Shown here: piece after piece, positions 42,421 through 46,261 of the stretch
Position numbering within the stretch: the first letter of the stretch is position 1
How the letters are laid out: each line of letters opens with the position of its first letter
DNA from: an uncultured Pseudomonadota bacterium
GTDB taxonomy: Bacteria; Pseudomonadota; Alphaproteobacteria; Rs-D84
Direction of reading: 5' to 3'
Length of the DNA: 64,000 bases
Assembly: GCA_902762295.1 (NCBI GenBank)
Contig: CACWNX010000001.1
Location: 465,671 to 529,670 of the forward strand
Notes under the pieces: model-generated
What the model was told of the DNA's origin: nothing
What the model saw: the letters and a program-made list of their open reading frames with translations, nothing else
The model's database searches: none
Program-made: the position numbers and the translations under genes

Positions 42421-43191
42421 ATGGAAATCATGTTTGACTTGACATGGATGGATTATATCTATATCGGCATATTACTGCTGTCCACAATATGGGCAACGGT
42501 TCGTGGCGGAATTTATGAAACGGTCGCGACATTATCATGGGTTGTTGCGGCGATTTCTGCACGATTTGCATCACCGTGGTTGGATAAATTATTACAGTCC
42601 TGGTTCGGCCTTGCCGAATCAACGGTTGGAACATTGGTGGCATCATATTTCATCGTGTTCTTTGTGATATTGCTGGTTGTGGGTATATTTAACCAGAAAC
42701 TGCGTGATCGAATTCAGGACAGTGTGATGAATGTCACCGACCGCACATTGGGGGTTATATTTGGTATCGTTCGTGGTGTGGTTGTTATGGGTATCGCATA
42801 TTGGATTGCGTTGTGGTATTTTTCCGACTATCCGCGTATGCCACATTGGATTGCCGATGCGCGCACGCGTCCGATTATGCAGTTGACCGCCGTTAAATTA
42901 GATCAATGGTTTATCCCGGGACCGGAAAACAGATTATTGAAACGTGATGTTGATGGTACGCACGAGGCAAAAAAGATATTTGATAACCTGATAAATCCGC
43001 GGGTGGTTGACGGCGAAAAAACGAAATCCGAAAATTCTGATGCGAAAAAACCGGAATCGAAACCAAACGAAGAAACCGGATATAAAAATTCAGAACGGTC
43101 TGCGTTGGAAAATCAACTGTTGCAGATTGAAACAGTTGCCAACGCGGTTGAACGACACGAACAAAACCGTGCAAAGCAAAATAAAGAATAA
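42421..43191 (+). CDS. cvpA: CvpA-family membrane protein
   Basis: ..DYIYIGILLLSTIWATVRGGIYE.. and ..DRTLGVIFGIVRGVVVMG.. match the colicin V production protein family. Charged C-terminal extension. Confidence 0.7.
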   Translation: MEIMFDLTWMDYIYIGILLLSTIWATVRGGIYETVATLSWVVAAISARFASPWLDKLLQSWFGLAESTVGTLVASYFIVFFVILLVVGIFNQKLRDRIQDSVMNVTDRTLGVIFGIVRGVVVMGIAYWIALWYFSDYPRMPHWIADARTRPIMQLTAVKLDQWFIPGPENRLLKRDVDGTHEAKKIFDNLINPRVVDGEKTKSENSDAKKPESKPNEETGYKNSERSALENQLLQIETVANAVERHEQNRAKQNKE

Positions 43192-43221
43192 AAAACGGAA
43201 TCAAATGATTTCGTTTTTTTA
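43192..43221 (+). terminator. Rho-independent terminator after cvpA
   Basis: AACGGAATC-aaat-GATTTCGTTttttttt. Confidence 0.6.
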
Positions 43222-43344
43222 ATGGTGTTTTTATTATTGTTTTGATTTTTATCCAATTTTAGTGTAACATACTATTGACAGGGCGATTGCTTTGTTGGGT
43301 GTCAGAACCCATTTAATGTATCGTGTCCGCGGGGACAAAAAATA

Positions 43345-43455
43345 CCTCCAACCAAACGTGGTTGGAGGGCGGTGAATATGTAGAATAAGCCCACTATTTT
43401 TCCGGGCATAATAGTTCTGAACCTCCAACCACTTGCTTTGTCTGGTGGTTTTTTG
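43345..43455 (+). promoter_or_regulatory. Structured leader upstream of the 43501 gene: perfect 10-bp CCUCCAACCA/UGGUUGGAGG hairpin, a second CCUCCAACCAC copy, then a terminator-like hairpin
   Basis: Hairpin 43345-43368 (CCTCCAACCA-aacg-TGGTTGGAGG). Second copy CCTCCAACCAC at 43422-43432, overlapping the stem AACCAC-(11 nt)-GGTGGTTtttttg at 43427-43455. Mutually exclusive pairings are possible. Confidence 0.4.
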
Positions 43456-43500
43456 TTCGTGTCTAATCAAACATTCGTGCACATAAAGAAAGGATAAGGT

Positions 43501-44469
43501 ATGAAAAAATTTATAGTTGTGTGTATATTCGGCTTAATAACCGTCCGGTCGTTCGGCCAAGTAGATGCTGATAGCGACAATATTGTTAACAACGCAACAG
43601 AATTGTTTAATGCCACAAAAATAGTTTGTTCGGGATTATCAGATGAAATTTCAAAAGTTTCAAATGTATCAAAAATAAACACCGCGGTAACCGGAGTTGG
43701 AACTGTTGCAGCCGGTGGTGCTTTGGCGGTTGGAATGGCAAAATCAAGTGAGGAAAGGGAAATAGAAGCATTGATAGACAAAATTTGTGCCAATGGTGGA
43801 TGCAGCGCAGAAAGTGTTAATGCGATGAGCCTGGAACAATTTTATACAAATGTCATTTCCCCAATGGCAGAAATTGCGGAATTACAGAACAAATTAGACC
43901 ACTCTAAAAAATTGGGTAATTGGCGCACTGGTTTAATGGCCGGAACAATCGGCACAAATTTGGCATCTGCAATAATATCGGGCGTAAACGCAAATCAATC
44001 TGATTTGATTCAGCATATAGAGGCGTGCAATAAAATGATAAAATCTTTGTCAGATATGCCGGCCAAATTGACATCTGCGGGTGTAAGTCCGTTGGATAAT
44101 CCAATAGCGAAAAAAATCAATAATGTAAAGACCTGGTGTAACCAGATAAACGTCAGTGATGCACAAAAAATAGAAAAGCGTATGAAAGGTGTAATGGGCA
44201 CATCAATCGCAGGCGTTGTGGTTGGTGGTATTGGCACAGCGGCCAGTGCGTCATCAAATTCCAATAAATATATGAATGCGGAACAAAGAATCGCCTTAAC
44301 AGAATCTGAAAAACAAAGTGTAAATAATTTGAATACGACGGCCAACATAATGTCGGGGGTTAATGTTGGTACAGGTTTGGTAGAGACGGGGTTAAATATT
44401 TCACTAATAACTTTAACAAAAAAAATGATACGCCAAGCCGAAATGTGTGAAGAGGCTTTGCAACAGTAG
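43501..44469 (+). CDS. Secreted hypothetical protein (322 aa)
   Basis: AAAGGATAAGG RBS. Signal peptide MKKFIVVCIFGLITVRSFGQ; Gly/Ala/Ser/Thr-rich; no TM. Confidence 0.5.
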   Translation: MKKFIVVCIFGLITVRSFGQVDADSDNIVNNATELFNATKIVCSGLSDEISKVSNVSKINTAVTGVGTVAAGGALAVGMAKSSEEREIEALIDKICANGGCSAESVNAMSLEQFYTNVISPMAEIAELQNKLDHSKKLGNWRTGLMAGTIGTNLASAIISGVNANQSDLIQHIEACNKMIKSLSDMPAKLTSAGVSPLDNPIAKKINNVKTWCNQINVSDAQKIEKRMKGVMGTSIAGVVVGGIGTAASASSNSNKYMNAEQRIALTESEKQSVNNLNTTANIMSGVNVGTGLVETGLNISLITLTKKMIRQAEMCEEALQQ

Positions 44470-44479
44470 GAGAAAAAAT

Positions 44480-45187
44480 ATGAAGAATTTTTTAATAATT
44501 TTGTCCTGTTTGTTTTATGTTCAAAATGCGTATTGTGATAATCCACCATTTGATATGGAATCTATGAATGCAGATTACATTGCCGGCAAGATTGATTTGG
44601 CAACGGCAATAGCGCTGTGTAAGCAAATTGTCAACTATGCGAAAGTGACCGAAATTGAAGTGTTATTACCGTATACCTCAGCCGATGGGAAAGAAATGTG
44701 GCATTCTATAAATAAGGATGATTGCGAACCTTCACCTGATTGGGATTACGATAGAAATTTGAGCTGGGTTTGGAATATCGCCATGTATGCGGCCAGGATT
44801 GTGGTAGAAACTGGTGTAAAAGAACATTCACAATGTCATCAATCTTTTATGGAATCACAGGCACGAACAAGGTGCGGTAGATTTGAGATGTCAAACTGGA
44901 CAAAAATTGGTTATACCATTTCTGGGTTAAATAACATGAATATAGATTGTTCTAAGACAGATAATAGATGTGTTGTAACCAGGCCAGCAAGCGATAAAAA
45001 CGGCAAAAATGTATTTTATACCGCCTGTTGTTTGATACCTATTATCAATTGTGAGTCTATAACAAATGATTCCGAACAGATTTTTTCTGGTACAACAGGA
45101 GATATTAGTCTTAGATGGAACGGTTTTACGGATAAGGCATTGGTTTTGGATGATTTTGGTTATGATTGTAAGCCAAAAACCGAATAA
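44480..45187 (+). CDS. Secreted Cys-rich hypothetical protein (235 aa)
   Basis: TAGGAGAAAAA RBS. Signal peptide MKNFLIILSCLFYVQNAYC; about 14 Cys. Confidence 0.5.
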   Translation: MKNFLIILSCLFYVQNAYCDNPPFDMESMNADYIAGKIDLATAIALCKQIVNYAKVTEIEVLLPYTSADGKEMWHSINKDDCEPSPDWDYDRNLSWVWNIAMYAARIVVETGVKEHSQCHQSFMESQARTRCGRFEMSNWTKIGYTISGLNNMNIDCSKTDNRCVVTRPASDKNGKNVFYTACCLIPIINCESITNDSEQIFSGTTGDISLRWNGFTDKALVLDDFGYDCKPKTE

Positions 45188-45189
45188 TT

Positions 45190-46104
45190 ATGAAACGCAT
45201 AATGGTATCATTTTTGTTGCTTATGTCGTCACTTTCTTGGGCGAATGATGCGTGTACCAATCCCGAAGCATATACGATTGATAAGCGTTGCTATGTAACC
45301 GAAGAACAAAAGAAACAAAAACCATACAATGCGGTTGCCACACTGGTATTGAACGATGGGCGAACACACTGTTCTGGAACAGTTGTAAAACGACAAGGAT
45401 TAACAATAGATGATGTGGGATATTTTTTATATACCGCCAAACATTGTGTAGATTTAAACCATGATAATATCACCGATGATTTGTTAAGAATACGATTGCC
45501 CAGCAATCAGGAATTTAACGCAAAACTGGTAAAACAGGGCAATTTAGATTATCAAGACCCCGCAAGTCAAACAGGCGATTGGGCAAAGTATAGGTTGGTC
45601 ACAATTGAACAAAATTCTGCTGACGGTGTAAAAGATTCTTTGGGTGGTGCATATGTGAAAATAAATGATTCTTTTGCACGCGGTGCAAAAAATGTTCGTA
45701 TTATTGGTTATGGTAAACTAAAAATAATGAGTGACCAAGAAATACAAGATTTTAAAAATGAATATACAGATTTTATTGACAAAACAGGTACCAATGCTAA
45801 TGACACGCATACAGATGATGGTGGAATTTATGGAAACGGTGTAACGATGTTTGTTTTGAAGAACAATAACCGTTTTAACGATAATCTGTTAAAAGTTTCA
45901 AAATGTTATCAAGATGCAAACACCAAGTTCACAGGATGTCAAGGATGGGGTGGAAATTCCGGTGGTGGTGCGTTTGATGACAATGGAAATTTAATGTGGA
46001 TACCCACATTAGGGCATTATCAAATCGGCGGCAAAGATCATGCCAGTATAACAGGCGGTGAAAATTTTCTTCCGTTTGGCAGATTACCCAACGTAAAAAA
46101 ATGA
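45190..46104 (+). CDS. Secreted trypsin-like (S1 family) serine protease
   Basis: Signal peptide MKRIMVSFLLLMSSLSWA. Catalytic triad contexts TAKHCV (His), DWAKYRL (Asp) and GCQGWGGNSGGGAF (Ser, GDSGG-like). Confidence 0.65.
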   Translation: MKRIMVSFLLLMSSLSWANDACTNPEAYTIDKRCYVTEEQKKQKPYNAVATLVLNDGRTHCSGTVVKRQGLTIDDVGYFLYTAKHCVDLNHDNITDDLLRIRLPSNQEFNAKLVKQGNLDYQDPASQTGDWAKYRLVTIEQNSADGVKDSLGGAYVKINDSFARGAKNVRIIGYGKLKIMSDQEIQDFKNEYTDFIDKTGTNANDTHTDDGGIYGNGVTMFVLKNNNRFNDNLLKVSKCYQDANTKFTGCQGWGGNSGGGAFDDNGNLMWIPTLGHYQIGGKDHASITGGENFLPFGRLPNVKK

Positions 46105-46150
46105 TATACAACCAAGGATTGCCTATCTTATAATTTGCTAAATTTTTTAA

Positions 46151-46172
46151 GCCCACGCGTTGTTGCGTGGGC
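46151..46172. terminator. Perfect 8-bp hairpin between the protease gene and tRNA-Thr
   Basis: GCCCACGC-gttgtt-GCGTGGGC, 14 nt past the tRNA-Thr 3' end. No strong T-run on either strand. Confidence 0.3.
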
Positions 46173-46185
46173 TAACAAAATTTCC

Positions 46186-46261
46186 TGGTGCCAGTTGTCG
46201 GACTTGAACCAACGACCCTCTGATTACAAATCAGATGCTCTACCAGCTGAGCTAAACTGGC
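46186..46261 (-). tRNA. trnT: tRNA-Thr (anticodon TGT)
   Basis: Reverse complement GCCAGTTTAGCTCAGCTGGTAGAGCATCTGATTTGTAATCAGAGGGTCGTTGGTTCAAGTCCGACAACTGGCACCA: acceptor GCCAGTT/AACTGGC, anticodon loop TTTGTAA. Confidence 0.85.

Follow-up and report, generated by a model that had tools for sequence, protein, structure and literature searches.

The stretch of DNA considered here, called the window throughout, comprises 64,000 nt of an uncultured alphaproteobacterium of the order Rs-D84. Between cvpA (42421-43191, Pfam Colicin_V), which bounds the RNA region upstream, and a tRNA-Thr gene on the minus strand (46186-46261), it carries a structured RNA element followed by a trio of open reading frames (ORFs) without annotated function (43501-46104), beyond which the tRNA gene lies. 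The element is a plus-strand RNA of ~178 nt (about 43277-43455) with its own promoter and seven helices, the last of which is an intrinsic terminator. It was first noticed, in an earlier note, through two copies of CCUCCAACCA and a set of alternative hairpins, taken there for a candidate attenuator or small RNA; the copies of CCUCCAACCA, at 43345-54 and in a segment designated box C below, are parts of the ~180-nt structured RNA. The most economical reading is that of a self-contained leader cassette, running from promoter to terminator on the plus strand, in which the terminator gates the ORF behind it through an exchange between three helices (A:B, B:C and C:D). The leader is thus read as what is probably a terminator/antiterminator switch that turns transcription of the gene behind it on or off, and the family to which it belongs as a new one.

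Re-reading of positions 42900-43700 found all the motif and hairpin coordinates of the earlier note to be exact. A perfect 10-bp hairpin occupies 43345-43368, with CCTCCAACCA (43345-43354), the loop AACG (43355-58) and TGGTTGGAGG (43359-43368); a second copy of CCTCCAACCAC is found at 43422-43432; AACCACT (43427-33) pairs with GGTGGTT (43444-50), after which a run of six T ends at 43454; and TTGACA lies at 43275-80. The motif set is not a matter of chance, because the exact 10-mer is confined to three places in the 64 kb (matches with one mismatch occur elsewhere at background level), because a repeat search of the window picked up the 11-nt complementarity GTGGTTGGAGG/CCTCCAACCAC, and because the region folds better than its shuffled versions: 43330-43460 gives a more stable fold than all of 200 shuffles (z = -3.7), as does 43277-43455 (z = -3.2). 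No other copy of the 270-nt region was found in the 64-kb window.

Conserved parts of the RNA

Relatives of the element were collected in two ways. A CvpA search with one genome per species yielded 80 related loci (labelled with L-numbers), all from uncultured gut or rumen Alphaproteobacteria, many of them named Candidatus Enterousia; the latter belongs to the order Rs-D84 and comprises uncultured gut Alphaproteobacteria with genomes <1 Mb (PMC12306168). In the 80 loci, blastn and iterated nhmmer located the element at ~25 places, of which only five are syntenic with the window, the non-syntenic copies occupying other sites of the mdh-GNAT-sodB-grx-cvpA neighbourhood and pointing either way with respect to cvpA. 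In addition, a pattern scan, in which GGTTGGAG and CTCCARCC were fixed, retrieved three IMG/VR contigs and at least 120 metagenome stretches, and a covariance model built for the family, R1, detects 146 copies in these. The family currently counts ~170 non-redundant copies in Candidatus Enterousia genomes and in gut or rumen metagenomes.

When the copies are aligned on the invariant GGTTGGAG, conservation begins ~70 nt upstream of the feature described in the earlier note, at the promoter, and two more conserved hairpins lie, with that promoter, upstream of it. The coordinates given there for the feature take in only the 3′ two thirds of the RNA. The TTGACA at 43275, for which the role of a -35 hexamer had been suggested, is rather the 5′ arm of hairpin Pa: a scan for sigma-70 promoters gave none that uses it, and the predicted promoter is found upstream. 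There, the -10 hexamer agrees with TATAAT at 5 or 6 of 6 positions in 141/166 copies, mostly starts 7-10 nt ahead of the start of the RNA model, and is separated from the -35 box by a 17-nt spacer. The parts of the window copy are listed in Table 1.

Table 1. Parts of the leader in the window and start of the gene behind it (window positions; pairing and covariation refer to the family)
Feature	Position	Strand	Description
-35 box TTGATT, sigma-70-type	43242..43247	+	17 nt upstream of the -10 box; TTG present here in ~80% of 157 aligned copies
-10 box TAACAT	43265..43270	+	4/6 agreement with TATAAT in the window copy; inferred transcription start about 43277
Hairpin Pa, GACAGGGC-gauu-GCUUUGUU	43277..43296	+	G-U pairs feasible only on the + strand; contains TTGACA
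Hairpin Pb, GGGU-gucaga-ACCC	43297..43310	+	conserved loop pattern U.R.AA; 4/4 pairs covary
Hairpin P0, UGUCC-gcgg-GGACA	43324..43337	+	optional; 5/5 pairs covary, 93.9% of cells paired
A-rich linker after P0	43337-43344	+	A-run ahead of P1 kept across the family
Hairpin P1, A box CCUCCAACCA (43345-54) with B box UGGUUGGAGG (43359-68)	43345..43368	+	perfect 10 bp, -16.4 kcal/mol
Three-way-junction domain closed by B:C, GUGGUUGGAGG (43358-68) with CCUCCAACCAC (43422-32)	43358..43432	+	-26.8 kcal/mol on its own
Helix P2 with 15-nt loop GAAUAUGUAGAAUAA (43374-88)	43369..43392	+	99.5% paired; 5/5 pairs covary
Helix P3, CUAUU...AAUAG	43394..43414	+	variable loop; 4/4 pairs covary
Box C	43422..43432	+	3′ half is the 5′ arm of terminator P4
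Terminator P4, AACCACU (43427-33) with GGUGGUU (43444-50), and U-tract	43427..43454	+	-7.3 kcal/mol
Ribosome-binding site (RBS, AAGGAUAAGG) and ATG of the first downstream gene	43490..43503	+	gene 43501-44469, 322 aa, signal-peptide-like N-terminus

Folding each copy domain by domain recovers Pa, Pb, P0, P1, P2, P3 and P4, and the helices differ in how strictly they are kept. Pa is found in the folds of single copies and all eight of its pairs change on both sides; Pb is still recognisable in the more divergent of two subfamilies (subfamily 2, see below); P0 is missing in some copies (L040, L034, L043, L030 and L044). P1, the proposed anti-antiterminator, is 80.8% paired across the family, with 5-10 bp and many U-G pairs. 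The three-way-junction domain is the proposed antiterminator and a possible sensor domain; the P2 loop within it follows the family consensus GAaua..u.gAAUAA and holds an inserted hairpin at its centre in L075 and in copy 4 of L110. A pseudoknot between this loop and the linker from P3 to box C was considered and rejected, the linker being too variable. P4 is conserved with covariation (e.g. ACCGCCC/GGGCGGU) and is followed in most copies by T-runs of 4-7.

Tandem duplication within a unit, seen at L167:990-1322 and L114:436-604, affects just the junction module (B, P2, P3, C), and the extra copy has the compensated boxes GGTTGGGG/CCCCAACC. Since the module duplicates with its boxes compensated, the three-way junction seems to be a functional domain in its own right.

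Two further repeats involve the leader in the window. The direct repeat TTGCTTTGTTGGGTG (43287-43301) / TTGCTTTGTCTGGTG (43433-43447) makes the 3′ arm of Pa recur in the loop and 3′ arm of the terminator, which enables the 5′ end of the leader to base-pair with the loop of the terminator, a pairing that constitutes the unconstrained minimum-energy fold; judged by eye, this repeat is seemingly limited to close relatives of the window rather than family-wide. A perfect 13-nt complementarity links GACACGAACAAAA (43154-66, in the 3′ end of cvpA) and TTTTGTTCGTGTC (43451-63, at and after the leader T-run); it is absent in L003 and L004 despite the same tail and was treated as a chance match.

Competing helices and energetics of the proposed switch

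Four strands take part in the proposed exchange, namely A (CCUCCAACCA), B (UGGUUGGAGG), C (CCUCCAACCAC) and D (GGUGGUU and the U-tract). During transcription A:B would form first, as a local and very stable hairpin; C, left free, would pair with D into the terminator, and the ~178-nt RNA would be released, which would be the default, OFF state. Alternatively, B would pair with C and close the three-way junction with P2 and P3; by sequestering the AACC of the terminator 5′ arm, B:C would let the polymerase read into the 43501 gene and on through the next two genes (ON). The effector would be a protein, an RNA or a small molecule, with the conserved 5′ hairpins Pa and Pb and the conserved loop of P2 as candidate sites for its binding; the terminated RNA may additionally act in trans. 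In the window, the order of parts is that of an attenuator, with the -10 box at 43265-70, the end of the terminator at 43454 and an ATG at 43501 on the same strand, 46 nt past the leader U-tract; an intrinsic terminator stands ahead of an ORF and is overlapped by a mutually exclusive helix that is kept by selection. The attenuator proposed in the earlier note stands as far as its layout is concerned, in which B fits either C-rich copy and the second of these runs into the terminator 5′ arm. The promoter, the strand, the helices, their mutual exclusivity, the near-equal energies in the window and the conservation and covariation of A:B as well as B:C are established by the analysis, while the regulated choice between the conformers, the conditional read-through and the ends of the transcript are what we infer.

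Support for the pairings comes from two sets of copies. Alignment A2 is a plain MAFFT alignment of 22 copies, in which pairs were counted for the antiterminator conformer: 86.4% of cells are paired, against 76.6% in shuffles, and 21 pairs change on both sides, a number that 0/500 shuffles reach and below which slid controls remain by far. RNAalifold, with no structure supplied, predicts the long-range B:C helix and Pb. In a set of 95 distinct metagenome copies, pairing amounts to 87.8% for the terminator conformer and 92.3% for the antiterminator conformer, and 34 and 30 pairs, respectively, change on both sides; no shuffle out of 500 matches this and slid controls give 35-53% pairing. Compensatory changes are seen in all helices. 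That the G-rich strand B can pair with either A or C, as claimed from the window alone, is supported by the family, in which B:C is paired in 22/22 A2 copies and in 99.3% of the metagenome set. The ninth B:C pair, which lies outside the invariant core, covaries as GC15/UA5/AU1/UG1 in A2 and as GC81/UA6/AU4 in the larger set. Box A is less conserved than C, and B and C are near invariant in sequence although base-paired, as is expected when one strand must fit two partners.

The copies fall into subfamilies that differ in their boxes. Subfamily 1 has A = CCUCCAACC, B = GGUUGGAGG and C = CCUCCAACC. In subfamily 2, represented by 11 copies in the 80 loci (L002, L019 and L005 carry one at the post-cvpA site of the window), all three boxes are altered jointly (A = CCCCGA, B = GUCGGGGAG, C = CUCCCCGAC), a joint change that speaks for the A:B hairpin as well as for the B:C antiterminator; the terminator still starts inside box C, wobble variants are feasible only on the plus strand, and the junction interior differs from that of subfamily 1. 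Boxes of the type GGUUGGGG/CCCCAACC occur in L060 and in the duplicated modules of L167 and L114. The plus strand is assigned to the RNA because R1 scores the window with 144.8 bits on that strand and 15.7 bits on the other, because G-U and U-G pairs are present in Pa, P1 and B:C, and because of the direction of the promoter.

For the window RNA (43277-43455), the predicted energies are -60.2 kcal/mol for the terminator form (A:B with C:D), -59.2 kcal/mol for the antiterminator form (B:C) and -60.9 kcal/mol for the unconstrained optimum. The two forms thus lie within 1 kcal/mol, which bears out the competitive pairing for which folding of both conformers had been recommended, and P1 forms part of the best fold of each co-transcriptional prefix. 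From the near-equal energies and the presence of P1 in all prefixes, it follows that the alternative pairing is competitive and that termination is likely the kinetic default according to the folding model. Across 100 relatives the terminator form is the more stable one in 66%.

Genes behind the leader and distribution of the cassette

That the element is a leader, placed directly upstream of a gene, was already part of the earlier note and holds for most of the family. Among the 153 copies with enough downstream sequence, 128 (84%) are followed on the same strand by an RBS and an ORF of >=40 aa that starts no more than 150 nt on (median, 25 nt past the model end); on the divergent side, taken as a control, the count is 35/158 (22%). 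A gap of ~25 nt is too short for a separate promoter of the downstream ORF. In ~11 of the 25 exceptions another copy comes next. The 128 downstream proteins form 56 clusters, the largest consisting of 39 small (about 60-120 aa) Xre/Cro-C1 helix-turn-helix (HTH) proteins, and ~45 of the 128 look secreted; Pfam and NCBIfam gave no common function for these genes other than the Xre-type HTH of the largest cluster. The leaders of L020 and L021 are identical and their cargo is unrelated, the identity stopping right at the end of the T-run.

In the window, the first two ORFs of the trio have signal-peptide-like N-termini and the third has a weak Trypsin_2 match, which is all that Pfam and NCBIfam returned for the three genes. 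The family of the 322-aa protein recurs six times, and is found on an IMG/VR contig as well. A weak promoter-like layout is seen close to this gene, with TTGTCT (43438-43) in the terminator loop and, after 17 nt, TCTAAT (43461-66) past the T-run; as the promoter of the 43501 gene it is unlikely, because its -10 hexamer is without the crucial A in second position and most relatives offer only ~25 nt from T-run to ATG, though on its sequence it could give basal expression of that gene.

A leader-peptide attenuator of the trp type was also considered. The window has a 19-codon ORF (43316-43375), but its ATG, frame and RBS are not conserved, and no conserved leader peptide was found in the family: an ATG-initiated ORF reaches the A/B region in only 78/157 copies, in all three phases, 11 of these 78 ORFs have a Shine-Dalgarno (SD)-like sequence, and loop indels do not come in multiples of three.

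The cassette occurs in five or more copies per genome. Seventeen loci have more than one copy, and tandem arrays of 2-4 complete units are found, with four units within 850 nt in L110 and three each in L158 and L114; each unit of an array has its own -35/-10 directly past the previous T-run, and 32-83 nt separate the units. Since the same cassette precedes heterogeneous accessory genes and is present several times in genomes <1 Mb, it looks like a regulon-wide switch. The heterogeneous cargo, together with the different junction interior of subfamily 2, disfavours a metabolite riboswitch and favours a protein, an RNA or a global signal.

Several observations concern the sites at which the cassette is found. 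Directly past the cvpA stop of the window, a symmetric hairpin, AAAAAACGGAATCA-aa-TGATTTCGTTTTTT (43190-43219), has an A-run before it and a T-run after it, for which reason it resembles a bidirectional intrinsic terminator of cvpA; it is kept in L001-L007 and related loci. The leader and the three downstream genes (~2.95 kb; 43192-46185) form a variable insertion between this hairpin and the 3′ end of tRNA-Thr: L001 is without leader and cargo and has tRNA-Thr directly behind the cvpA terminator (L001:6760-6900 compared), and L021 and L008 have the same leader with different genes behind it. Opposite-strand tRNA genes are also found just past the cargo in L110, L158 and L019. Three contigs classed as viral (IMG/VR) bear the element. 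On one of them (L081:9956-13164), it stands ahead of a homologue of the 322-aa protein of the window, with neighbours that, read by eye, include a phospholipase-D-type HKD motif protein and a DNA methyltransferase-like ORF. In L155, L096, L194, L198 and L199, the place of the ORF past the element is taken by G+C-rich nested palindromes (e.g. GTAGGGGCGCATCGCGACGCGCCC...GCCGCCCCTAC), suggestive of an insertion of REP-type repeats between the leader and its cargo.

Alternative explanations and known systems

Several results weigh against the reading as a switch. The terminator of the window is weak, with 7 bp, a 10-nt loop and -7.3 kcal/mol. The energy gap between the conformers is broad across the 100 relatives, with a median of -7.7 kcal/mol favouring the terminator form, and in only 12% of copies are the two within 3 kcal/mol. 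The genes behind the leader are functionally unrelated and give no clue to a signal. Tandem, self-promoted units are typical of multi-copy small RNA genes and unusual for attenuators or riboswitches. Finally, the near-invariance of B and C in the metagenome set is partly produced by the scan pattern; as this pattern fixed the B and C boxes, independent support for B:C comes from alignment A2, the ninth pair and subfamily 2.

Among the other explanations, a family of trans-acting small RNAs (sRNAs) keeps a minor yet real share of the probability. Here the ~178-nt terminated transcript would itself be the product, either a protein decoy or a regulator of the anti-SD type that presents the CCUCC of one of the boxes C and A, and the ORFs would ride on leakage of the terminator. 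As expected of sRNA genes, the units are complete from -35 to T-run, occur in several copies and tandem arrays with a promoter each, lie at differing places in related genomes, and end exactly where sequence identity ends while the cargo changes; moreover, the C/U-rich boxes of both subfamilies are complementary to ribosome-binding sites of the GGAGG or GGGGAG type, and the CCUCC half of box C is left unpaired beside the terminator when the RNA adopts the terminator conformer. This half is, however, the only part of the CCUCC boxes unpaired in that form, the boxes being otherwise mostly within helices and not in loops; an sRNA has no need of a conserved, covarying B:C helix that competes with its own terminator; the same-strand ORF in 84% of copies (22% in the control), ~25 nt on and with no room for its own promoter, speaks for a role in cis; and no sRNA family of Rfam matches. 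The small-RNA alternative of the earlier note is thus opposed by the ORF context and the B:C competition, and is kept open by the tandem promoter-to-terminator units: since such arrays, with a promoter for every unit, are what multi-copy sRNAs typically show, a role in trans is retained as the main rival or as an extra function.

A small-molecule riboswitch is improbable. It would have the three-way junction (B:C, P2 loop, P3) as aptamer and a ligand that stabilises B:C to give the ON state. The junction is indeed the best-conserved part, P2 with its strict pairing carrying an invariant GA...AAUAA loop in subfamily 1; overlap between its closing helix and the terminator is a trait also of ON-type riboswitches; duplication of the module occurs; and several copies per genome are known for second-messenger riboswitches. 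On the other hand, neither metabolism nor transport unites the downstream genes, subfamily 2 retains the switch with a different junction interior and hence without conservation of the putative pocket, riboswitches do not usually have an A:B competitor or a promoter for each unit, and no riboswitch of Rfam matches.

Very little speaks for a mobile repeat of the MITE or REP type, or a chance local duplication, devoid of RNA function, with an inverted repeat (43334-43368 with 43422-43457) as terminal repeats. The window region does fold as one long imperfect hairpin, and copies are numerous and variably located, but the long outer hairpin is not conserved as an inverted repeat, the helices covary independently (the terminator changes to ACCGCCC/GGGCGGU without matching changes in box A), and each unit has a near-consensus promoter and a terminator in fixed orientation relative to the ORF. 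A dispersed repeat, an uptake sequence or a MITE was rejected on the same lack of conservation of the long inverted repeat and because the 64-kb window holds a single copy, with no other copies of motif or element.

Least credible of all is a reading in which the perfect hairpin serves on the minus strand, as an intrinsic terminator or as the end of an sRNA (antisense or other), with the remainder incidental; the model scores, the G-U pairs and the direction of the promoter led to its rejection. On that strand CCTCCAACCAcgttTGGTTGGAGG is followed by TATTTTTTG in the top terminator-like site of the scan, the A-run before P1 is conserved and a weak Spot 42-like Rfam alignment (E = 0.49) arises from this hairpin, but R1 favours the plus strand as given above, the many U-G and G-U pairs would turn into A-C mismatches, the promoter and the second terminator point in the plus direction in ~170 copies, and nothing upstream there needs terminating, the 43501 gene being on the plus strand.

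With the leader cassette as the preferred reading, a broader proposal may be advanced tentatively: a new class of effector-sensing switch in portable, tandem-stackable cassettes, in which the junction or the 5′ hairpins would bind a second messenger, a dedicated RNA-binding protein (possibly one of the small Xre-type proteins often encoded behind it) or an RNA, a regulon spanning the reduced genomes (<1 Mb) of these gut symbionts would comprise secreted proteins and small regulators, and the 178-nt product would double as a trans-acting anti-SD RNA. In any case, with ~170 copies, covariation in each helix and no match in Rfam or the literature, there is good support for regarding the leader as a candidate new family of structured cis-regulatory RNAs. 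Architecturally it is unusual in that a switch of three strands, arranged about a three-way junction, is combined with stackable units that have their own promoters. A cassette with five or more copies in genomes <1 Mb is probably a major regulatory device of the Enterousia lineage, where it sits ahead of secreted proteins and small Xre regulators, and the signal of this orphan switch could reveal how Enterousia symbionts sense their environment.

The search for a known relative, a check by covariance models that the earlier note had called for, brought no family to light. With the 4227 models of Rfam 15 at the gathering threshold, only tRNAs pass in the window and 12 related loci, and a permissive scan of 43150-43550 gave chance-level matches only; the best match overlapping 43277-43455 is Spot 42 on the minus strand, with 17.9 bits against a gathering score of 80. 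Full-text literature searches on RNAs of Enterousia or Rs-D84 found nothing relevant.

Three groups of known systems are nevertheless instructive. Type III toxin-antitoxin loci (ToxIN-like) share the succession of promoter, structured or repeated RNA, Rho-independent terminator and ORF; in them, the repeats are processed into RNAs of 34-49 nt, the terminator sets the RNA:mRNA ratio and a toxin gene lies behind. The present units differ in being ~175 nt long with promoters of their own, and in preceding 56 unrelated protein clusters, mostly Xre and secreted proteins. The multi-copy anti-SD sRNAs of Alphaproteobacteria (the alpha-r14 ‘cuckoo’ RNAs, e.g. NfeR1, and CcsR1-4 of Rhodobacter) resemble the element in their alphaproteobacterial hosts, in their several, often tandem copies, each with its own promoter and terminator, in their C/U-rich motifs of the CCUCC type and in their variable genomic contexts. 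These sRNAs display CCUCCUCCC in unpaired loops and are not known to stand systematically ahead of a promoter-less ORF. The element differs from them in that its CCUCC boxes are strands of competing helices, one of which overlaps the terminator; Rfam gave no match to families of the alpha-r14/CcsR type.

The third likeness is to leaders that work with a terminator, an antiterminator and an anti-antiterminator (T-box, PyrR, ON-type riboswitches). As in those attenuators, the element is promoter-proximal and on the same strand as the ORF, an alternative helix (B:C) makes use of the 5′ arm of an intrinsic terminator, strand A, as the third, contends for pairing with B, and conservation is highest in the shared strands, as it should be where a single strand serves two partners. 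It departs from them in having no Rfam match, conserved leader peptide, T-box sequence or known protein-binding motif, and in consisting of tandem units, each with a promoter, in front of functionally heterogeneous cargo. The element works like a classical terminator/antiterminator attenuator and is a member of no described family, differing from the known ones by its stackable, self-promoted units and its unrelated cargo.

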